From assembly GCF_054482595.1 (NCBI RefSeq), contig NZ_CM137008.1: a stretch of DNA of 64,000 nucleotides. One strand, written 5' to 3'. The first letter of the stretch is position 1. Every line of letters starts with the position of its first letter. The position numbers and the translations under genes were made by a program. Shown piece after piece: positions 7,979 to 17,123 of the stretch. The notes under the pieces were generated by a model. That model had not been told where the DNA came from. It searched no databases and saw nothing but the letters and a program-made list of their open reading frames with translations.

Positions 7979-8071
7979 TATTGGTAAACCTCATCACAGA
8001 TTTAAGGGTGAACAAATCTCTGCCATTGCTGACATATAAGAATGAAACTGGATATTTATTACGGTGCTGTT

Positions 8072-8263
8072 TTAAAATCCTGCCGGGATTTCGTTATTAT
8101 CCTGGTGAATAACTTTATCGACCGGATAACAGTTGCCTGGAATTTTCTGTTCGGTTGCTGCTGCCATACATTCCTGCTTTGTTCTGTGAACACTGACTGC
8201 AATATCAACTGGCTCTCCGGAAACAAGAAAAACCGTCAGAATAAGTGCAAATACTGGATTCAT
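8072..8263 (-). CDS. ydfD: Small secreted/membrane protein, YdfD-like
   Basis: 63 aa MNPVFALILTVFLVSGEPV... with N-terminal hydrophobic segment; start overlaps dicB stop (ATGA). Confidence 0.5.
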   Translation of the reverse strand: MNPVFALILTVFLVSGEPVDIAVSVHRTKQECMAAATEQKIPGNCYPVDKVIHQDNNEIPAGF

Positions 8264-8448
8264 TGTGCACATCCTTTTGGCATCATACGTAAACGGGCCA
8301 GCATTGAAACAATGCATACTTTATTTAATAACTCCCGTTCGTGTTTTCTTTTGTTAATGGCATCTTCAGTAAATACAGGATTACTGATAGTGACACCAAT
8401 TTCAAAACAACCTTCAGACGTATTAACGTTTGGTAATAACGTTTTCAT
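8260..8448 (-). CDS. dicB: Cell division inhibitor DicB
   Basis: 62 aa MKTLLPNVNTSEGCFEIGVTISNPVFTEDAINKRKHERELLNKVCIVSMLARLRMMPKGCAQ, matching my recollection of Qin DicB. Confidence 0.75.
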   Translation of the reverse strand: MKTLLPNVNTSEGCFEIGVTISNPVFTEDAINKRKHERELLNKVCIVSMLARLRMMPKGCAQ

Positions 8449-8617
8449 TATCGCGCCCTCAACAATGAGTTTTGTGATGCGGTGCCTGGTGCCTCCAGGT
8501 GACGTTAACCAGTTAACAATTAACGCCGGATACAGAGAATCCACCCATAACACTGTTTTTGGTTTTAACTGTTCCGCGTGCGCTTAGCCGCATTCACCGC
8601 ATCACAAAATTCACTTT

Positions 8618-8675
8618 AAAAAGGGCGGCAGAGCAGTCACGGAGTAAAACTGATACCGCCAAACGTCACCAGAAA
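8618..8675 (-). ncRNA. dicF: DicF small RNA (ftsZ-targeting sRNA of the dicB operon)
   Basis: Minus strand reads TTTCTGGTGACGTTTGGCGGTATCAGTTTTACTCCGTGACTGCTCTGCCGCCCTTTTT, matching remembered DicF with terminal hairpin and U-run. Confidence 0.7.
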
Positions 8676-9015
8676 ATTGATAACAGAGGGCGTTGCAGCG
8701 GGGTTGTCACTTAAGCGTATGGTCAACCTGACAACCCGGTGTCCTCAACGGGGAAGGAATAACCCCGCCATACTTACCGCCGCGCCATTTCGCGGAGTGC
8801 CACAACCGGAAGCGCACGGTCGACGAAAATTTAACGACAGGCTATCTATGAACCAGCTACCTCGCCGTGCGCTTTCGCGTTATGGTCTGACTTTTCAGGG
8901 AAATATCCTTTCAGTAAACTGTCAGTGCCGGATGCTCACCCGTGTCCGGCGCACGCACTCCACCTCACCCGTGGAGAACTCCTTAATTACCAACCTTAGC
9001 TTCGTTGGTTAGCTA

Positions 9016-9234
9016 TTAACGCGGGTATGTAATCATTCTGGCAATGCTTAATGCCGCTGCTTTTTCCAGATTGGTGATATCCTGCTCCAGAGCGGACAGA
9101 TTTTCAGCCTGCTTAGCCCTGGCTTCATTAGCCCATTTCAGATCCTGCGCTGCATTAATTTTCTGGCGCATCCACTCATAAAGTTCATCATCGGTATAGT
9201 CTGGCGCGATTATGACGGGTTCTCGTTTCTGCAT
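9016..9234 (-). CDS. ydfC: Small early-operon protein, YdfC-like
   Basis: 72 aa from MQKREPVIIAPDYTDDELYEWMRQ...; position upstream of dicF as in Qin. Confidence 0.5.
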   Translation of the reverse strand: MQKREPVIIAPDYTDDELYEWMRQKINAAQDLKWANEARAKQAENLSALEQDITNLEKAAALSIARMITYPR

Positions 9235-9326
9235 GTCAGCTCCTTGTGGTTCGCATTGCCTGCTTTTAACCACGTCAGGCGAGGTGGTATCCTCTGAGGG
9301 GTCTGTTACTCGAGAGGAAATTGGTT

Positions 9327-9527
9327 ATGAATACAATCAAGTTTTCTTGCCCAGAATGTGGTGGCGAAGTCTTTGACACATCCTTTAAGCCGCAGGGCTC
9401 TGACAGTTTCGCGGGAGCCATCTGCAAAAATTGTGGTCACCTTGTAACTGAAGATGAGTCCTCGCAGTTCGATGACGAAATCGTTGACAATATCTTCGGT
9501 GCACTCACCAGAGACTTTCTGAAATAA
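9327..9527 (+). CDS. Small zinc-ribbon protein (CxxC...CxxC)
   Basis: MNTIKFSCPECGGEVFDTSFKPQGSDSFAGAICKNCGHLV...; SD-like gagaggaaa ~7 nt upstream; antisense to leftward early operon and overlaps minus-strand ORF 9306..9662, so only one is likely real. Confidence 0.4.
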   Translation: MNTIKFSCPECGGEVFDTSFKPQGSDSFAGAICKNCGHLVTEDESSQFDDEIVDNIFGALTRDFLK

Positions 9528-9851
9528 AGACGCATACCGCTTAGTTACCGCTCTGATAACTCTTACCTGTCCGGCAATGGCGCTGATGTCAATATAAAGC
9601 GCCATTGCTGCTTCTTTGCCGATCCCGTGATGCCTTCCATTCTGATGTTTGACTTCGCCCACTGAGAAATCCTCTGTTTCCCCTTAACGCCGGGGTAGCG
9701 GAACAAAAACCTGCTGCATAGTTATTAAAGTTGGACCCTGCCGTCATGTTCTTACGCCTCGGGCTGGCTACTTAACCCCTGACCACTGCCTGGTAACTCG
9801 AAGTATTGCCCTGCATTCTGTGGGGCGGGGTGGGTTGGTATGAAAAGAAGG

Positions 9852-9889
9852 ATACCCATAGGTATTTAAAAAGTAAATACCCATGGGTA
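9852..9889. promoter_or_regulatory. Candidate OL operator pair (palindromic TACCCAyrGGTA sites) and leftward early promoter region
   Basis: atacccataggtat (9852-9865) and tacccatgggta (9878-9889); related to acctgtgggtat sites between repressor and cro. Confidence 0.45.
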
Positions 9890-9931
9890 ACTTTTTGCGG
9901 TGTCTTAACTGGTGACTAGTTGTTTGGTGAG

Positions 9932-10351
9932 CTATGATGCGTTTTGTGCTTTCTTTTTACGGATTTCTTCGTAGATCATATTGTAATACTGTTTTTTCTC
10001 TTCAAGAGTTTTTAATAAGTTATCCGCTTCACTTTCTGGCAGTTCGTCTAAGAGATCTAAAAAAATACGTTGTCGTGGCGTTAGAACCCTTGTTTCATAA
10101 CTGGAGGCTGTGTTCGTTGATGATGAAACGATACCATCCATCCATCCCCGGGGTAACCCAAAGGACTCTTCGATAATCTCCACCATATCATCAGCGATCC
10201 GTTTTTTTCCCTTTTTCCCCTCTGGGTACAACATTCTTGATACATAAGAAGGCTCGCGCCCGATCTTTCTGGCCACGTTAACCGCTTTACCATCGCATTT
10301 CTCATCACGAATTTTGATGAGTTGCTGTCGTCTAAATTCATATTTGTCCAT
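9932..10351 (-). CDS. Prophage repressor (CI-like, HTH)
   Basis: 139 aa with HTH-like GKAVNVARKIGREPSYVSRM; divergent from cro-like gene; flanked by operator-like repeats. Confidence 0.65.
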   Translation of the reverse strand: MDKYEFRRQQLIKIRDEKCDGKAVNVARKIGREPSYVSRMLYPEGKKGKKRIADDMVEIIEESFGLPRGWMDGIVSSSTNTASSYETRVLTPRQRIFLDLLDELPESEADNLLKTLEEKKQYYNMIYEEIRKKKAQNAS

Positions 10352-10387
10352 AGGTAAATAATAGATGCGATTACCGCAAGGTAAACA

Positions 10388-10423
10388 ACCTGTGGGTATT
10401 GACTTTTGTTTACCTGTGGGTAT
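10388..10423. promoter_or_regulatory. Candidate OR operators: two direct copies of ACCTGTGGGTAT in the repressor/cro divergent region
   Basis: Copies at 10388-10399 and 10412-10423. Confidence 0.5.
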
Positions 10424-10451
10424 TCTTTACTGTGTTTACTAAGGAGTAGCT

Positions 10452-10733
10452 ATGGAAGAATTAAGAATATTTCTCAATTCTCTTTCGTCAGATGAACAGC
10501 GTATGTTTGCATGCGAGTGTGGTACCAGCATCGGTTATCTAAGAAAGGCATTGAGTAAAGGTCAAGTGTTAGGGGCATCGTTATGCGTCCTTATTGAGCG
10601 AGCCAGTAATGGTGAAGTTACACGTCAGCAACTAAGGCCTTTTGATTGGATGAATATTTGGCCCGAGCTGGAAGATACCAAAACGTTAACACAACCACTT
10701 TCTAGGAGCTTGATTCATGAAAATCAAGCATGA
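10452..10733 (+). CDS. Cro/YdaS-like HTH regulator
   Basis: 93 aa; AGGAG SD; first gene of rightward operon; helix-turn-helix-like CGTSIGYLRKALSKG. Confidence 0.6.
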   Translation: MEELRIFLNSLSSDEQRMFACECGTSIGYLRKALSKGQVLGASLCVLIERASNGEVTRQQLRPFDWMNIWPELEDTKTLTQPLSRSLIHENQA

Positions 10734-11142
10734 ACACATCCGCATGGCGATGAATGCCTGGGCGCATCCGGACGGTGAAAAAGTTCCGGCAGCTGAAATA
10801 ACCAGGGCTTATTTTGAACTGGGTATGACGTTCCCAGAACTGTATGACGACAGCCATCCGGAAGCCCTGGCTCGCAATACCCAGAAAATTTTCCGCTGGG
10901 TAGAGAAAGACACCCCTGATGCAGTTGAAAAAATTCAGGCGTTGTTACCAGCGATCGAAAAGGCAATGCCACCTTTGCTGGTGGCCAGAATGCGCAGCCA
11001 CAGTTCAGCTTATTTTCGGGAGCTGGTGGAGACGCGGGAGCGACTGGTGAGAGACGCTGATGATTTTGTCGCAGTGGCAATCGCCGGTTTCAATCAGATG
11101 AACCGTGGTGGCCCGGCAGGAAATGCTGTGGCAGTACATTGA
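10717..11142 (+). CDS. YdaT/CII-like early protein
   Basis: 141 aa, starts MKIKHEHIRMAMNAWAHPDGEK; follows cro-like gene as ydaS-ydaT in Rac-type prophages. Confidence 0.45.
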   Translation: MKIKHEHIRMAMNAWAHPDGEKVPAAEITRAYFELGMTFPELYDDSHPEALARNTQKIFRWVEKDTPDAVEKIQALLPAIEKAMPPLLVARMRSHSSAYFRELVETRERLVRDADDFVAVAIAGFNQMNRGGPAGNAVAVH

Positions 11143-11213
11143 CTGACAATAGCCATATCGAATCGCTTCCGGCAACTCGTGAGTAAAAAGATTCGGTATC
11201 AGAAGAGGTGAGT

Positions 11214-12308
11214 ATGGCTAACGCCTGGCTCAGATTATGGCATGACATGCCAAATGACCCTAAGTGGCGAACAATTGCCAGGGTGTCAGGGCAGCCAATT
11301 GCAACAGTGATGGCAGTGTATATCCACCTCCTGGTGAGCGCGTCACGAAATGTCACGCGAGGTCACATTGATGTCACGACAGAAGATTTGGCAAGTGCGC
11401 TCGACGTGACAGAAGAGGTAATTGATTCAATTTTGCAGACGATGCAGGGGCGGGTACTTGATGGTGATTTAATCACTGGATGGGAAAAACGCCAGGTGCT
11501 TAAAGAGGACAACGGCAATATTTCGCAAACCGCAAAATCTCCTGCAGAGCGCAAGAGGGCGCAGCGAGAGAGGGAAAGAAAGCGGGAACAAAATGGCGAT
11601 TGTCACGGCGCGTCACGAAATGTCACGCACATGTCACGACGAGTCACGACAGATAAAGATACAGATAAAGATACAGATCAAGAAGATCAAAACACTATGG
11701 TCCATGGCGTAAAAAACGCCACGAACCAGGCAGGGGATGTTCAGACCGTCAATCTTGGTCAGCCAGCAGGCACGACACCGGAAGCCGATTCAGCGTATGC
11801 GCTGAAAGCCGATTCGGGCGCTGTGCAGCAGGTGATGACCGCAAGGCTGGAGCAATCACACCAACTGCAGCAGCCCGAAGCCGATTCCGCCATTCAGCGG
11901 GAAGCCGATTCCGCCATTCAGCGGGAAGCCGATCGGGTAGTCCCGGAAAACACCGGGCAGTCTGTGGGACGAGTGGATTATCCGGATGTGTTCGAACAGG
12001 TCTGGCGGGAGTACCCGTTGCGTGCCGGAGCAAACCCGAAGAAATCCGCTTTCAGTGCCTGGAAGGCCAGATTACGCGAGGGGGTGCCACCAGAGGCCAT
12101 GCTGGATGGCGTGAGGCGTTACGCAAGATACTTGGCGGCTACCGGGAAAACGGGAACGGAATTTGTTCAGCGAGCGACGACGTTTTTTGGACCGGACCGG
12201 AATTTTGAGAACCCCTGGTTGCTCCCGGTAAGCGGCACGAACAACCAGCGTTGTGTGAATCATATTTCTGAACCGGATAACGAAATTCCGCCGGGCTTCA
12301 GGGGGTAA
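11214..12308 (+). CDS. Putative replication initiation protein (O-like) with internal repeats
   Basis: ATG 11214 after SD agaagagg; contains two GTCACG iteron-like clusters and coding tandem repeats (DKDTDKDTD, EADSAIQR x2). Confidence 0.55.
   Translation: MANAWLRLWHDMPNDPKWRTIARVSGQPIATVMAVYIHLLVSASRNVTRGHIDVTTEDLASALDVTEEVIDSILQTMQGRVLDGDLITGWEKRQVLKEDNGNISQTAKSPAERKRAQRERERKREQNGDCHGASRNVTHMSRRVTTDKDTDKDTDQEDQNTMVHGVKNATNQAGDVQTVNLGQPAGTTPEADSAYALKADSGAVQQVMTARLEQSHQLQQPEADSAIQREADSAIQREADRVVPENTGQSVGRVDYPDVFEQVWREYPLRAGANPKKSAFSAWKARLREGVPPEAMLDGVRRYARYLAATGKTGTEFVQRATTFFGPDRNFENPWLLPVSGTNNQRCVNHISEPDNEIPPGFRG
11342..11380. repeat. Iteron-like cluster 1: four GTCAC(G/A) at ~10-11 bp spacing
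   Basis: GTCAC at 11342, 11352, 11362, 11373 inside the replication gene. Confidence 0.5.
11602..11650. repeat. Iteron-like cluster 2: five GTCACG at ~10-11 bp spacing
   Basis: GTCACG at 11602, 11612, 11622, 11633, 11643; cgtcacgaaatgtcacgc shared with cluster 1. Confidence 0.5.
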
Positions 12309-12348
12309 GTGTTAATTTCTGGTCATGAGGTAATTTTCAGGAGGGCTT

Positions 12349-12771
12349 GTGGCAAAAGTTTTTACACAAGAAGAGCGGGAAAAAATTAAAGGACAGGTTG
12401 TTGAACTCGTACGCCAGAGTGGGCGTGAGACGTTACGGCAACTGGAAGTCAAGACAGGTGCGACAAGATATCTGATGAGCGTTCTCGCAAGAGAGCTGGT
12501 TGCCAGCGGCGATGTATACAACTCTGGTTACGGGTTATTCCCGTCTGAACAGGCGCGTAAGGACTGGCAAAATGCCCGTAAAAAGCTCTCAAGGGCAAAG
12601 CTGAAGAAACCATCTGCGGTTGATCCGGACCTTATCTGGTCATTACCAGACGGAGAAATACGCCGCTACGACAGGCGCCTGAATATAATCTGTCGCGAGT
12701 GCCGGAAGAGCGAAGCTATGCAGCGTGTACTGGCTTTCTATCAGGGTAATTTTCAGGAGGCGGTACTGTAA
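12349..12771 (+). CDS. Hypothetical protein (possible winged-helix)
   Basis: 140 aa, GTG start with SD caggaggg; no confident family. Confidence 0.45.
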   Translation: MAKVFTQEEREKIKGQVVELVRQSGRETLRQLEVKTGATRYLMSVLARELVASGDVYNSGYGLFPSEQARKDWQNARKKLSRAKLKKPSAVDPDLIWSLPDGEIRRYDRRLNIICRECRKSEAMQRVLAFYQGNFQEAVL

Positions 12772-12828
12772 GTGAAATTAGCTATCAGGCTTCAATTGCC
12801 GCTGGCATTCGCATCAAAGGAGAGGAGC

Positions 12829-13185
12829 ATGGAAATAAAACCAGAAGATGAGTTAAGTAATATTGTTTTATTTCCGGTAAAAGAGGATGACCCACGTAAT
12901 CAGGTTAATTTTCTTTATGAGCCATCGGAAAGACCATACTGCCATCACGCTTCTGTCCGGGTTGACGAAAAAGAGCGTCAGGTCCGCTGTAAAATCTGCG
13001 GTGCAGTTGTGGAGCCATTTGACTGGATGCTCTCTGTGGCGAAAAGAGAAACCAGACTGGCAGATGATGTAAAACTATTGCGCCAGGAGGAACAGGAAAG
13101 GCGAAAAAATATAGAAAAGCTAATTCAGATTGAGCGTAATGCGAAAGCACGGATACGCAGGGTGACAAAATCCAGAACTGAATAA
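12829..13185 (+). CDS. Hypothetical protein with Cys/His cluster and coiled-coil-like C-terminus
   Basis: ATG 12829 after ggagaggag; CHHASVRVDEKERQVRCKICG motif. Confidence 0.45.
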   Translation: MEIKPEDELSNIVLFPVKEDDPRNQVNFLYEPSERPYCHHASVRVDEKERQVRCKICGAVVEPFDWMLSVAKRETRLADDVKLLRQEEQERRKNIEKLIQIERNAKARIRRVTKSRTE

Positions 13186-13278
13186 TTAAATTTAGCACTG
13201 TTAAAAATTTAATCCTTAACCGGAGGGATTTCTGCACCCTCAGAACAGCAGGAGGCCACCCGAAAGGGTGGTAGTGAA

Positions 13279-13461
13279 ATGCGAAAGTTCAAAATAATTA
13301 TTGAAACGGGAATAGCTGGTGGAGATTTTGAGGATGTATTCGAAGTGGACGATGACGCAACACCTGATGAAATTCATGACGAAGCAAAAGAAATTTTCTT
13401 TAACTACTGCAATTACTCATATCACGAAATAAAAGACGAAGAGGAAGAACAAAATGGCTGA
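13279..13461 (+). CDS. Small highly acidic protein
   Basis: 60 aa, about 19 Asp/Glu; stop overlaps next start. Confidence 0.4.
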   Translation: MRKFKIIIETGIAGGDFEDVFEVDDDATPDEIHDEAKEIFFNYCNYSYHEIKDEEEEQNG

Positions 13462-13630
13462 TTTTGGTTCAACTAAATACAACGTCAGTTTTGAAGAATG
13501 GCATGAACTGTTAATGGACTATGCAGAGTTACGTGGTGGAAGTGCTGCTGATGCTGAAGCCTGGCGTGATGACTACGAAGCAGGAAAAACTCCGGTCGAA
13601 GCATATTGTGATGAGTGGGGCGATGAATGA
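13454..13630 (+). CDS. Small acidic protein (58 aa)
   Basis: ORF found by hand, below the 60-aa cutoff of the ORF track; MADFGSTKYNVSFEEWHELLMDYAELRGGSAADAEAWRDDYEAGKTPVEAYCDEWGDE; ATGA overlap with next gene. Confidence 0.35.
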   Translation: MADFGSTKYNVSFEEWHELLMDYAELRGGSAADAEAWRDDYEAGKTPVEAYCDEWGDE

Positions 13631-14142
13631 GCGAGATTAATTATCAGGAAGGGCATGAAACGGCAGGGCAGGCAAAACCAGTTGCATGGCGATATCGCTA
13701 CGTGAAAAAAGGCGTTACGGACTTTCAGGAGAAGATGTGGGTTGGTGACTGGAAATATGTACCGACAAAAGAGGGGTGCAACGACAGGCCGGGCTATGAG
13801 ATTCAGGCCTTATTCACTACCCCGCCAGTCCCTGTGATATCAGAAGGACTGGTTAAAGCCGTGCGCTTTTATGAACAGGTAAAGCGTGAGAATCCACCAG
13901 TCGAAACAGGAGCATGGAAAGATGCTGTTGATTGGGTACTCAAAGAGGCCTGCTGTGCTGTCATTCTGGGTAAAGCCGACAATCCACTAGCATCCAGTAA
14001 TCAGGTTGGCGAATTAACAATGTGGGTTAAACGACTGGTCAGTCAACTGAAAAAAGCTAATCCAGACTGCAAATTACCGGAGATGGCGATGGATTACCTG
14101 AAACGAAATGGACTGATAAGCGTGGAGGATGTTTTACGATGA
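13627..14142 (+). CDS. Hypothetical protein
   Basis: 171 aa; translationally coupled to neighbours. Confidence 0.5.
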   Translation: MSEINYQEGHETAGQAKPVAWRYRYVKKGVTDFQEKMWVGDWKYVPTKEGCNDRPGYEIQALFTTPPVPVISEGLVKAVRFYEQVKRENPPVETGAWKDAVDWVLKEACCAVILGKADNPLASSNQVGELTMWVKRLVSQLKKANPDCKLPEMAMDYLKRNGLISVEDVLR

Positions 14143-14222
14143 CCTGGCCTGAGGCATTTACAACGGCAGGAATCGCAATGGCTGTGGCGCTGGTGGTGTA
14201 TTCGATTTGCCGCTGGGGATAA
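14139..14222 (+). CDS. Possible 27-aa hydrophobic peptide
   Basis: MTWPEAFTTAGIAMAVALVVYSICRWG; ATGA overlap with upstream gene; single predicted TM segment. Confidence 0.25.
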   Translation: MTWPEAFTTAGIAMAVALVVYSICRWG

Positions 14223-14376
14223 AAACGGTTTGCGGGAAAAGGAGAGTTAAGTAGAATTGCAGCGGGTGCTTGAGGCTATCTGTCTCAGGCATGAACACCA
14301 AAAGGCAGATAGAGAAAAGCCCCAGTTAACATTACGCGTCCTGCAAGACGCTTAACATTAATCTGAGGCTCAATCT

Positions 14377-14589
14377 ATGAACGGCAAATCTAGGTTAGCC
14401 TCTTACGTGCCGAAAGGCAAGGAGAAGCAGGCTATGAAGCAGCAAAAGGCGATGTTAATCGCCCTGATCGTCATCTGTTTAACCGTCATTGTGACGGCAC
14501 TGGTAACGAGGAAAGACCTCTGCGAGGTACGAATCCGAACCGGCCAGACGGAGGTCGCTGTCTTCACAGCTTACGAACCTGAGGAGTAA
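14377..14589 (+). CDS. mok: Mok-like leader ORF, in-frame N-terminal extension of hok
   Basis: 70-aa ORF MNGKSRLASYVPKGKEKQA... continuing into the Hok reading frame. Confidence 0.45.
   Translation: MNGKSRLASYVPKGKEKQAMKQQKAMLIALIVICLTVIVTALVTRKDLCEVRIRTGQTEVAVFTAYEPEE
14434..14589 (+). CDS. hok: Hok/Gef-family type I toxin
   Basis: 51 aa MKQQKAMLIALIVICLTVIVTALVTRKDLCEVRIRTGQTEVAVFTAYEPEE; complementary mRNA end elements at 14263-14276 and 14639-14653. Confidence 0.8.
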   Translation: MKQQKAMLIALIVICLTVIVTALVTRKDLCEVRIRTGQTEVAVFTAYEPEE

Positions 14590-14732
14590 GAGACCTGGCG
14601 GGGGAGAAATCCCTCGCCACCTCTGATGTGTCAGGCATCCTCAACGCACCCGCACTTAACCCGCTTCGGCGTTTTTTCCGTTGATTAACTCTAGTTATTA
14701 GAGAACCGAACTTTTATTGATGGGGCAGGGAG

Positions 14733-15125
14733 ATGAAGAAACTTGTTTTAGTCGCAGGTGTAATGATTGCAACAGTAATGTTGGGAGGGTGTGCAGCAAA
14801 GGTCGATCCAGCGTTGAAAGCAGAAGCAATGAAGCCACTAACATGTAATGATGAAAAGCAATGTGACTTTTATTGGAAACGAGCGCAATTCTGGTTGGCT
14901 AATAATTCCTCATGGAAAATTCAAACGGCGACAGACACGCTAATTTCCACTTATAATCCCTCTCCAAATAGTCCATTCCTCGCTTATCAGGTGAGTAAAA
15001 TGCCAAATGAAGATGGATCCTCAAGAATTTTCATCAAGCCTTTTTGCGATAATATGTTTGGCTGTCAACCAAACCCCTATCAGGCAGTTGTTTCCTTTAA
15101 AAACTTCGTTAAAACAGGGCAGTAG
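14733..15125 (+). CDS. Lipoprotein of unknown function
   Basis: 130 aa; signal peptide with lipobox LGGC; four further Cys; followed by terminator-like hairpin. Confidence 0.55.
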   Translation: MKKLVLVAGVMIATVMLGGCAAKVDPALKAEAMKPLTCNDEKQCDFYWKRAQFWLANNSSWKIQTATDTLISTYNPSPNSPFLAYQVSKMPNEDGSSRIFIKPFCDNMFGCQPNPYQAVVSFKNFVKTGQ

Positions 15126-15324
15126 TGTATAGCTTGGACGATAAATTATTAGTGAAAACGCCGTAAACCCTCACCCAATGTGGACTAAGTCTATCAAACA
15201 TGACTGTGATGATTAGTCCGTAGTTGTTGCCTATGAAATCTGGATTGAGTCAGGGTTTAATCCAATAATTATTCTATCGTTCCTTTACAAGTCCGGTATA
15301 TTACTTTCAGTTTGTTTTAGCATA

Positions 15325-15350
15325 CCCGCTTCGGCGGGTTTTGTTTTTTC
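15325..15350 (+). terminator. Rho-independent terminator (CCCGCTTCGGCGGG + T-run)
   Basis: GC stem with UUCG loop followed by ttttgtttttt. Confidence 0.6.
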
Positions 15351-15421
15351 CTGGCATTCTGGTTTACAATTCGCACGCCAGCCTGAACAACTGGCACCTG
15401 CTGCGCCAGCAGAGACAACCG

Positions 15422-15700
15422 ATGGCGCACGATACCAAATTACACAATTCTGATGATTCTGCCGTCTTTGCCAGCAGGCACGGGCGGCGTTCCCGCACTT
15501 TCAAATCTGACTGGTTCCAGCATGACCCATGTACTGAAGAACAGGCCGAATGGCTAATTCATAACTATCGCAGACGCGGATACGAGATTAAGAAAGCCCT
15601 CAGCCTCGATTATCGTCACTGGATAATCTATGTCAGGCTCCCTTATTCCGAACGCCCACCGCGCCCATCCCGCACATACCAGCAACGGATCTGGAGGTAA
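15422..15700 (+). CDS. Hypothetical small protein
   Basis: 92 aa from MAHDTKLHNSDDSAVF...; weak SD; overlaps start of the next ORF. Confidence 0.3.
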   Translation: MAHDTKLHNSDDSAVFASRHGRRSRTFKSDWFQHDPCTEEQAEWLIHNYRRRGYEIKKALSLDYRHWIIYVRLPYSERPPRPSRTYQQRIWR

Positions 15701-16757
15701 CGTGCGGATATTACTTCGACCTGTTCTGGTACCGGAACTCGGGCTGGTGGTCCTTAGGCCGGGCCGTGAATCCATGCAAGTATTTCATAACCCTCGAGTG
15801 CTGGTGGAGCCTGAACCGAAAAGCATGCGCGGTCTGCCGTCCGGAGTCGTCCCTGCCGTTCGCCAGCCGCTGGCGGAGGATAAATCATTACTGCCATTTT
15901 TCAGCGATGAGCGGGTGATTCGTGCTGCTGGCGGCGCTGGGGCACTGTCTGACTGGCTGTTGCGTCATGTCAAATCCTGCCAGTGGCCTCATGGTGACTA
16001 TCATCACAGTGAAATCGTCATACATCGTTACGGTACCGGCGCGATGGTGTTGTGCTGGCACTGCGACAACCAGTTGCGTGACCAGACATCCGAATCACTC
16101 GGGCAACTTGCTCATCAAAACCTGTCAGCATGGATGATTGACGTCATACGCCATGCAATGAATGGCACGCAGGAGCGGGAATTGTCGCTGGCTGAATTAT
16201 CCTGGTGGGCGGTCTGCAATCAGGTGGCGGACGCGCTTCCGGAGGCAGTATTACGTCGTTCTCTGGGGTTACGTGCGGAAAAAATCCGCTCCTTGTACCG
16301 CGAAAGCGACATCGTACCGGGAGAGCAGACCGCCACCAGCATACTGAAGCAGCGCACAAAAAATCTTGCGCCGTTGCCTCATGCCCACCAGCAAAACCCG
16401 CCACAGGAAAAGACGGTGGTCAGCATTGCCGTTGATCCGGAGTCACCGGCTCAGTATCTCCAGCGCCAGAAACCACAACAGGAAGAGATGCCTGTATACA
16501 CGCGTTGGGTAAAAACGCAGAAATGCATGACGTGCGGTAATCAGGCAGATGATCCGCATCACATCATTGGTCATGGACTGGGAGGGATGGGAACAAAGGC
16601 TGATGATTTGTTTGTTATTCCGCTGTGCCGTAAATGTCATAACGAACTGCACGCCGGGGTAAAAGATTTTGAAGAAAAACACGGCAGCCAGCTGTTGTTG
16701 CTGATTCGTTTTTTAATGCACGCGAGAAATTCGGGTGTCCTGAAGTGGAAAGCATGA
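15630..16757 (+). CDS. DUF968-like nin-region protein (YdfU-like)
   Basis: 375-aa ORF; C-terminal Cys/His cluster CMTCGNQADDPHHIIGHG...CRKCHNELH; true start may be GTG 15702 or ATG 15774. Confidence 0.55.
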   Translation: MSGSLIPNAHRAHPAHTSNGSGGNVRILLRPVLVPELGLVVLRPGRESMQVFHNPRVLVEPEPKSMRGLPSGVVPAVRQPLAEDKSLLPFFSDERVIRAAGGAGALSDWLLRHVKSCQWPHGDYHHSEIVIHRYGTGAMVLCWHCDNQLRDQTSESLGQLAHQNLSAWMIDVIRHAMNGTQERELSLAELSWWAVCNQVADALPEAVLRRSLGLRAEKIRSLYRESDIVPGEQTATSILKQRTKNLAPLPHAHQQNPPQEKTVVSIAVDPESPAQYLQRQKPQQEEMPVYTRWVKTQKCMTCGNQADDPHHIIGHGLGGMGTKADDLFVIPLCRKCHNELHAGVKDFEEKHGSQLLLLIRFLMHARNSGVLKWKA

Positions 16758-17123
16758 ATGACTGAACGCATAGAATTTGTTTTGCCTTACCCGCCGACGG
16801 TGAATACCTACTGGCGACGTCATGGCAATACGTATTTCATCTCGGAAGCCGGAAAGCGTTATCGCCGTGATGTGGCGCTAATTGTTCGCCAGCAGCGGCT
16901 GAAATTAAGCCTGTCCGGAAGGCTGGCGATAAAGATTATTGCAGAGCCACCGGATAAGCGCCGCCGCGACCTGGACAATATCCTGAAGGCACCACTGGAT
17001 GCGCTGACGCATGCCGGACTACTTATAGACGACGAGCAGTTTGATGAAATCAATATTGTGCGCGGTCAGCTCGTTCCTGGTGGGCGGCTGGGGATAAAAA
17101 TCACAGAACTGGAGTGCGCATGA
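16758..17123 (+). CDS. rusA: Holliday junction resolvase RusA
   Basis: 121 aa; LPYPPTVNTYWRRHG...RRRDLDNILKAPLDALTHAGLLIDDEQF matches RusA catalytic Asp region. Confidence 0.8.
   Translation: MTERIEFVLPYPPTVNTYWRRHGNTYFISEAGKRYRRDVALIVRQQRLKLSLSGRLAIKIIAEPPDKRRRDLDNILKAPLDALTHAGLLIDDEQFDEINIVRGQLVPGGRLGIKITELECA

Follow-up and report, generated by a model that had tools for sequence, protein, structure and literature searches.

The window analyzed here is a stretch of 64,000 nucleotides (nt) from contig NZ_CM137008.1 of NCBI RefSeq assembly GCF_054482595.1 and features a lambdoid prophage of Escherichia coli, with an integrase, a RecE-like exonuclease, a Q-like antiterminator at 17114, an endolysin, and a terminase. 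The early-right region of this prophage carries the gene of a replication initiator of 364 amino acids (aa), which matches phrog_3729, "replication initiation protein," over its entire length (E = 1e-252). Two arrays of short direct repeats with the core GTCACG lie inside this gene; downstream of the second array come an AT- and purine-rich tract and an inverted repeat. The segment 11342–11728 is very probably the vegetative replication origin of the prophage, located within the gene that encodes its initiator. The gene and the parts of the putative origin are the following, with spacings in base pairs (bp):

11214–12308, plus strand: replication initiator gene, an open reading frame (ORF) of 364 aa of the "phage replisome organizer" type, with GAGGTGA preceding the ATG; holds the putative origin
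11342–11378, plus strand: iteron cluster 1, putative auxiliary array; GTCACG, GTCACG, GTCACA, and GTCACG at spacings of 10, 10, and 11 bp
11405–11410, minus strand: inverted iteron copy, reading CGTGAC on the plus strand
11602–11648, plus strand: iteron cluster 2, putative core origin array; five GTCACG at spacings of 10, 10, 11, and 10 bp
11649–11697, no strand assigned: AT- and purine-rich tract, putative DNA unwinding element; ACAGATAAAGAT in 2.9 copies, encoding TDKDTDKDTDQEDQN
11698–11728, no strand assigned: inverted repeat directly after the AT-rich tract, with 13-nt arms that are 85% complementary and a 5-nt spacer

Direct reading and a pattern search place exact GTCACG copies of cluster 1 at 11342, 11352, and 11373 and the variant GTCACA at 11362; those of cluster 2 are exact throughout and lie at 11602, 11612, 11622, 11633, and 11643. 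An earlier, sequence-only reading of this DNA had described four GTCACG in the first cluster and five in the second, each 10 to 11 bp apart. The five copies of cluster 2 are borne out by the pattern search, and for cluster 1 the position and the spacing hold, but one of the four copies is not exact. The same reading had both clusters begin with a common 18-mer; this 18-mer, CGTCACGAAATGTCACGC, is indeed present twice (11341–11358 and 11611–11628), but its cluster 2 copy sets in one repeat later, at the second. The inverted copy at 11405–11410 was absent from its list. In the window as a whole, GTCACG occurs 29 times and thereby matches the chance expectation of 27.7 ± 5.6. Nine exact copies are contained in 310 bp, compared with a maximum of 1 to 5 and usually 2 in 300 first-order Markov simulations of the window. 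The arrays, hence, feature at least three direct repeats in helical phase, above chance, and are referred to as iterons.

The nine GTCACG hexamers are distributed over all three reading frames—those of cluster 1 fall into frames 2, 0, 1, and 0—and the period of 10 to 11 bp is, therefore, not a peptide period. A codon alignment was built from seven homologues of 61 to 73% amino acid identity, namely, the window gene, Aeromonas phage pAEv1818, Pseudomonas phage Marin, and four viral contigs. At codons with an invariant amino acid, the pairwise identity of third positions amounts to 0.88 under the iterons compared with 0.47 elsewhere in the domain. The codons GCG TCA, GTC ACG, GGT CAC, GTC ACG, and GTG beneath the hexamers are unchanged across all seven homologues, and the spacer bases between the hexamers are variable. 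In a four-way DNA alignment of the window, phage Tritos, pAEv1818, and Marin, conserved islands coincide with the two clusters, the inverted copy, and the AGATAAAGATA tract, and the sequence that encodes the linker near cluster 2 is divergent. As judged by these alignments, the GTCACG hexamers are under selection at the level of DNA.

Comparable arrays recur across the family. A first scan of viral contigs yielded only near-identical E. coli copies, which were used for copy-number variation, and a second scan, whose profile left out the E. coli clade, yielded 80 diverse loci. A phased run of at least three copies is found at gene nt ~340–460 in 82 of 85 loci, with runs defined loosely by same-strand 5-mers. 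In 59 of 78 loci, the initial 650 nt of the gene contain at least two same-strand hexamer pairs at a distance of 9 to 11 nt; none or one such pair is present in 212 of 214 flanking control windows. The core follows GnnACG(C) in the variants GTCACG, GCAACG, GTGACG, GTAACG, GAAACG, and AACGCC, and CGAACG occurs as well. The upstream cluster, where present, usually carries the same hexamer as the downstream one, with a match that is not clear-cut in loci L102/L103 and L157. Ralstonia phage Firinga, at 38% identity, features GCAACG at gene nt 130, 140, 151, 161, and 182 together with inverted copies, and a second cluster of GCAACG at gene nt 401, 411, 421, and 431. A Manatee Spring phage has three and then five copies of (C)GAACGC, and in further lineages both clusters carry GTGACG or CGAACG. 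The inverted copy at 11405 is conserved in the Aeromonas and Pseudomonas homologues, and the GCAACG lineage has inverted copies, too.

The repeat changes along with the lineage of the N-terminal domain (N-domain), a covariation that is partly automatic through physical linkage and rests on counts without phylogeny correction. A loop of the N-domain tracks the translated hexamer lineage by lineage—as NVTRGH.DVT, NATQCNADATRGN, or SVTQGDASVTRGD—and the DNA signal of cluster 1 here dictates the sequence of the protein loop. The covariation shows that one factor changed its specificity. Among about 72 near-identical E. coli prophage copies, the number of iterons is constant at 4 (+1 inverted) and 5, and a point change within an iteron is seen in only three of them; the comparison of copy number across related prophages that had been suggested as a check returns a fixed number for these copies. 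The distance between the clusters is 260 bp in the window gene and varies from about 189 to 271 bp among homologues, which lends no support to a fixed looping geometry.

The tract that follows cluster 2 is built on the 12-nt repeat ACAGATAAAGAT, for which Tandem Repeats Finder gives 2.9 copies at 11649–11683, encoding DKDTDKDTD. The same program confirms both short tandem peptide repeats noted in the sequence-only reading, DKDTDKDTD and EADSAIQR. DKDTDKDTD is best read as the coding shadow of the AT-rich element beside the iterons. Within the gene, AT content peaks in the 40-nt windows around 11655 (72.5% AT compared with a gene mean of 46%), and the coding strand is purine-rich there. On the family average, the 45 nt after the last iteron contain 75% purine (gene 55%) and 57% AT (gene 40%), and the typical sequence of this tract is CTAGAGGAGAGGAGAGTAGAGAAGA. 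A purine-rich run of at least 20 nt follows cluster 2 in 78% of 76 loci and in 0.4% of control windows, and the motif TAGA[GT] follows it in 76% of the loci compared with 3.3% of the controls. Among close E. coli relatives, the number of ACAGAT / ACAGATAAAGAT units is variable, with protein lengths of 352 to 364 aa, as expected of a slippage-prone tract in a length-tolerant linker.

Of 77 loci, 40% have perfect stems of at least 7 bp in the 110 nt past cluster 2, compared with 3.6% of 385 control windows. In many homologues (L089–L168), a GC-rich hairpin stands after the polypurine tract, approximately 30 to 60 nt past the last iteron; its stems vary in sequence yet remain complementary, and its loops often read CTAACG, CTGACG, or CTATCG. 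This hairpin might act as DNA or RNA. A search for Rfam-type RNA families returned none in the initiator gene and only DicF and sok elsewhere in 8000–16000. Internal promoter or terminator signals were discarded as candidates, with counts not above those of shuffled sequence.

The initiator is modular as judged by tblastn. Its residues 1–138 are ~70% identical in Aeromonas and Pseudomonas phages with differing C-terminal parts and partner genes, and residues 158/230–364 are common to "O" and "primosomal protein I" proteins of Stx phages that carry other N-domains. GTCACG is retained by the N-domain across three different C-terminal or partner arrangements, and no GTCACG array was found in two phage initiators that pair the same C-terminal domain (C-domain) with other N-domains. 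At the sequence level, the hexamer, hence, travels with the N-terminal and not with the C-terminal domain. The arrangements themselves are diverse: In Pseudomonas phage Marin (L002, 2501–5227), the GTCACG-type N-domain is a stand-alone protein of 186 aa upstream of a primase/helicase gene; in Aeromonas phage pAEv1818 (L001, 2429–4101), it is fused to a different C-terminal part and followed by a gene of 246 aa annotated as "replicative helicase"; and in the window gene, it is fused to a C-domain with a DnaT-like tail, without a loader. Marin and pAEv1818 each have a YdaT-toxin-like gene upstream. The parts of the window gene that lie outside the putative origin or overlap it at the protein level are the following:

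11214–11570, plus strand: coding region of the N-domain, aa 1–119, a predicted winged-helix origin-binding module
11877–11933, plus strand: 24-bp coding tandem repeat in the inter-domain linker, EADSAIQR in 2.4 copies; not part of the origin
11946–12248, plus strand: C-terminal helical domain, aa ~245–345, a predicted module for recruitment of the host replisome or helicase loader
12231–12305, plus strand: C-terminal tail of 25 residues (...VNHISEPDNEIPPGFRG), common with host DnaT as found by BLASTP

Structure prediction models the N-domain as a winged helix resembling the N-terminal domain of DnaD; the fold is, thus, a predicted one. Cluster 1 encodes a loop of this model, aa 43–55, which lies between the modeled helices 29–45 and 56–63. 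The C-terminal helical domain is represented by over 4000 cluster representatives and has no Pfam family and no solved structure. Its relatives were collected by an exhaustive search of representatives, a word-indexed search having given mostly fragments. Its consensus reads YP..FE..W..YP.R.G.NPK...A...W.AR...G ... GTEFV.QA.TFFGPD..F...W, and it is joined to several unrelated N-terminal DNA-binding domains. The gene itself is common: At a coverage of at least 80% of 11208–12308, it is present in 1646 of 5426 complete E. coli genomes. Among the 12 RefSeq records listed, 11 read "hypothetical protein" and one "phage replisome organizer"; near-identical genes are present in Tritos, Evi, and further phages, and those of Tritos and Evi bear the annotations replication protein, replisome organizer, or primosomal protein I. 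The names "DNA replication protein O" and "Primosomal protein I," which occur in phage records, both disagree with the tests for membership in these families.

The C-terminus of the initiator ends in a short element of host type. Residues 340–364 align by BLASTP with residues 154–178 of E. coli K-12 DnaT with 15 of 25 positions identical (E = 1e-7), the alignment of the last 25 residues, at 60% identity, being ...SEPDNEIPPGFRG in the initiator and ...SEPDSQIPPGFRG in DnaT. The NCBIfam DnaT model NF002770 matches this tail only and scores 19.5 bits, the cut-off being 201, and no DnaT structure is among the 60 best fold matches of the helical C-domain. The DnaT orthology implied by some phage records was, hence, rejected, the similarity being confined to the last 25 residues, and with only the tail matching DnaT, the label "primosomal protein I" on relatives is an over-call. 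The same tail is found together with other N-domains in the initiator of the Stx phage 75/02, which has a DnaC gene directly after it, and in that of phage cdtI, which has no loader. A DnaT C-terminal motif has already been noted on DopC, a lambda-O-like domesticated protein (PMC5509034). DopC resembles the window protein in joining an N-terminus of the origin-binder type to a DnaT-like C-terminal element, and it differs in being reported without iterons (PMC5509034), which the window gene features. How DnaT recruits DnaB/DnaC is still open in the literature (PMC4132743, PMC13377028).

A further sequence of this kind is seen at the end of a small ORF of unknown function on the minus strand (8072–8317, phrog_1092), which terminates in ...HQDNNEIPAGF and resembles the tail ...PDNEIPPGFRG common to the initiator and host DnaT. 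The docking peptide of the initiator could, thus, have a second copy here, carried by a prophage protein unrelated to it. The ORF looks YdfD-like.

The following course of initiation is proposed from the sequence anatomy, and binding, unwinding, and origin activity are to be read in this conditional sense throughout. Rightward early transcription from the Cro-side promoter would give rise to the initiator of 364 aa, whose N-terminal winged helix would bind the direct repeats of 10 to 11 bp with the core GTCACG. With the copies in helical phase, the bound proteins would align on one face of the DNA. The five-copy array at 11602–11648 would form the core; the four-copy array with its inverted copy, 260 bp upstream, would be auxiliary and serve cooperative or looped assembly or control. 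The resulting nucleoprotein complex would destabilize the tract at 11649–11697, and the inverted repeat at 11698–11728 would bound the opened region. Finally, the C-terminal domain and the DnaT-like tail would bring in the host DnaB–DnaC or primosome machinery. This last step is proposed since no P, DnaC, or DnaB gene was found in the early-right region: A search from initiator to Q (12309–17114) returned no P-, DnaC-, or DnaB-like gene, with the small ORFs at 13279–15125 not individually scanned. The ORFs of at least 150 aa between initiator and Q are one of unknown function and one HNH-endonuclease-like.

The closest known layout is that of phage lambda. That iterons lie on one face of the DNA within the initiator gene, in the manner of the lambda origin, had been put forward in the sequence-only reading, and all sequence-level tests run here support it. 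Both origins lie inside the initiator gene, almost equally far from its start (iterons of lambda at O nt 349–433; cluster 2 at nt 389–435), and both feature the order of iterons, an AT-rich tract that is A/G-rich on the coding strand, and an inverted repeat; in the annotated lambda record, CACAAAAGACACTATTACAAAAGAAAAAAGAAAAGATTATT comes after the four iterons, and the inverted repeat GTCAGAGAATTC...GAATCCTCTGAC comes next. In both, an N-terminal DNA-binding domain and a C-terminal recruitment domain flank the segment that holds the origin (PMC6022878). In-frame deletions in the origin region of lambda O are reported to leave an O that still complements, so this region encodes a tolerant linker. 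The gene order CI, Cro, CII, and initiator with a Ren-like gene nearby is likewise shared. However, the N-domains are without sequence similarity (BLASTP E = 24), which led to the rejection of homology to lambda O, and there is no match to Pfam Phage_rep_O. Lambda has four sites of 18 bp with inverted symmetry, each bound by an O dimer (PMC6022878), whereas the window iterons are head-to-tail direct repeats of 10 to 11 bp with a non-palindromic core of 6 to 7 bp, GTCACG. In addition, the window gene differs from lambda by a second, upstream array plus an inverted copy, by a Ren-like gene in place of a P gene immediately downstream, and by the DnaT-like tail at the C-terminus.

The replisome organizers of Gram-positive phages offer a second comparison. 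In SPP1, oriL consists of iterons (AB boxes) and an AT-rich unwinding element within gene 38 (PMC5737612). Its product G38P is a non-AAA+ initiator with its own binding repeats in the gene, beside an AT-rich unwinding element (PMC5737612), and the same is predicted from sequence for the window gene. Proteins identical to the window protein are named "phage replisome organizer" by NCBI, and the modeled N-domain is of the DnaD N-terminal winged-helix type. The match to Pfam Phage_rep_org_N PF09681 is weak and far below significance (independent E-value 0.25; aa 5–122 compared with positions 1–118 of a model of 121), and the PHROG replisome-organizer families phrog_4880 and phrog_5968 match with E = 4.8e-6 and E = 2.7e-4. 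The hosts of the window gene family differ from that of SPP1 in being Proteobacteria and Cyanobacteria, and SPP1 encodes its own loader and helicase (G39P and G40P), of which the window prophage has neither. The purine-rich tract of the TAGAGAAGAG type and the GC-rich hairpin of the window family are not mentioned for SPP1-type systems in the literature found. Theta-replicating plasmids with iteron origins have several features in common with the window gene: multiple direct repeats that are short and helically phased, an easily opened region beside them, a cis-encoded initiator, DNA binding by a winged-helix fold, and possibly a second, controlling array. Unlike these, the window array has a phage context, no DnaA box with at most one mismatch was found in 11000–12400, and, lying inside a coding sequence, the array is also constrained by translation.

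Other explanations of the arrays have to be weighed against an origin. The repeats might merely reflect coding, as a peptide repeat (ASRNVT...) or a duplication within the protein that is kept for protein function and has no role in DNA binding; a coding duplication had been named beforehand as one of the outcomes that would count against the origin. The shared 18-mer does lie in one frame in both clusters and encodes ASRNVT twice, and the amino acids of the cluster 1 loop are conserved in the closest clade; but consecutive hexamers sit in different frames, the third positions beneath them are invariant and drift elsewhere, the loop residues of other lineages are the exact translation of the altered hexamer, and the DNA repeat of cluster 2 is kept where the protein alignment is poorly conserved. 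The coding duplication is contradicted by the frame and synonymous-site tests and was rejected as highly improbable. The arrays might instead be sites of a transcription regulator, such as a CII-like activator or repressor, at an internal or antisense promoter, and no origin at all. Lambda CII-type activators recognize direct tetramer repeats about 10 bp apart. In favor of a regulator are this spacing, a CII-like gene located just upstream, and one weak promoter-like match on the minus strand, 11626–11599, which overlaps cluster 2. However, promoter-like matches number 3 compared with 2.9 ± 1.3 in shuffled sequence, arrays of four to seven copies recur in homologues with unrelated neighbors and no annotated CII, a purine tract and often a hairpin follow the arrays, and the hexamer stays with the N-domain of the initiator through module swaps. 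A regulator is, in view of this, quite unlikely.

A third explanation retains the initiator as the bound protein and assigns at least one of the arrays, namely cluster 1, to control—by titration, handcuffing, or autoregulation, for which iteron plasmids are the model—or to a second, independent origin. In its favor, at least two copies of the cluster 2 word occur in the cluster 1 zone in a subset of homologues, no purine tract adjoins cluster 1, cluster 2 is 260 bp away from it, and SPP1 G38P binds two separate sites, compare oriL and oriR (PMC5737612). None of the results argues against such a control array, which we hold unlikely as a complete account; it is compatible with an origin at 11342–11728 and refines that reading rather than competing with it.

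The origin at 11342–11728 has points against it, too. At least two copies of a homologue's own cluster 2 word are present in the cluster 1 zone in only 30 of 85 homologues, and the role of cluster 1 is, hence, a putative one. Several nearby intergenic stretches are more AT-rich than the tract at 11649–11697, and in GC-rich relatives, this tract is purine-rich rather than strongly AT-rich, so that "unwinding element" may be too simple a term. Iterons inside the gene are co-inherited with the N-domain, and their covariation is, for this reason, no proof that the initiator is the factor in question; residues of the recognition helix or wing that track the iteron dinucleotide were sought by eye, and no clear pattern emerged. 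In the literature consulted, DnaT residues 154–179 are credited only with a contribution to cooperative binding of single-stranded DNA (PMC4132743), and the partner of the tail is, hence, a putative one. A published mapping or description of the origin of this family was not found in a literature search that was thin on subscription journals, and an older description is possible.

The design of an origin embedded in its initiator gene is classical, as in lambda, SPP1, and iteron plasmids. More novel could be the polypurine tract found across the family, the hairpin, and the combination of a DnaT-like tail with the absence of a loader. These lead to a tentative joint reading, which we regard as possible rather than probable. 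A large, unnamed family of phage initiators in Proteobacteria and Cyanobacteria would share a three-part origin grammar in its coding sequence, made up of lineage-specific GnnACG(C) iterons, a conserved polypurine tract of the TAGAGAAGAG type, and a GC-rich hairpin. Beyond easy melting, the polypurine tract may be an element for strand-asymmetric loading or single-strand recognition, and the hairpin, with stems that differ between lineages and loops that often read CTAACG or CTGACG, is perhaps a single-strand initiation signal. The enterobacterial initiator, lacking a phage loader, would present a copy of the DnaT tail to the host restart primosome or to DnaB–DnaC.

For a very common prophage module, which is mostly labeled "hypothetical protein" in the listed RefSeq records, this gives a testable annotation. 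Initiators and iterons of matched specificity occur in this family as a natural series—GTCACG, GCAACG, GTGACG, GTAACG, and CGAACG—useful for studies of DNA recognition by winged helices and for orthogonal replicons, and the family is a clear case of a DNA signal that dictates a protein loop sequence. The loader-less arrangement with a DnaT-like tail suggests how such prophages might take over host helicase loading. It is thereby relevant to the induction of prophages, to how Stx-type phages that carry this C-domain replicate, and to the phage ancestry that has been proposed for the loader genes of hosts (PMC5509034).

The second tandem repeat of the gene is of a different kind. Tandem Repeats Finder gives a 24-nt unit with 2.4 copies at 11877–11933, encoding EADSAIQR. 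Most relatives are 24 bp shorter (1077 compared with 1101 bp, or 356 compared with 364 aa) and have one EADSAIQR unit fewer. The region has no counterpart in the Aeromonas and Pseudomonas homologues, which match aa 1–138 only. The EADSAIQR repeat is most likely the product of slippage in the linker, variable in copy number, and its sequence bears no sign of a role as DNA. The linker of the initiator is, in general, a hot spot of in-frame length variation.

The initiator gene is preceded by a CI-like gene on the minus strand (9932–10351), a Cro-like gene (10452–10733), and a CII-like gene (10717–11142), and its downstream neighbor is the Ren-like gene at 12349–12771. Farther upstream, the antisense RNA DicF (Rfam RF00039, 76.7 bits) is located at 8623–8674 on the minus strand, adjoining a DicB-like ORF at 8260–8553 on the same strand. 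This dicB/dicF pair is a cell-division inhibition cassette of the Qin type, and phage Tritos has the same arrangement. On the other side of the initiator, the sok antitoxin RNA (Rfam RF01794, 112 bits) at 14264–14439 on the plus strand overlaps the start of a Hok-like ORF of 70 aa (14377–14589, plus strand), which places a toxin–antitoxin locus of the hok/sok type within the early-right region of the prophage.

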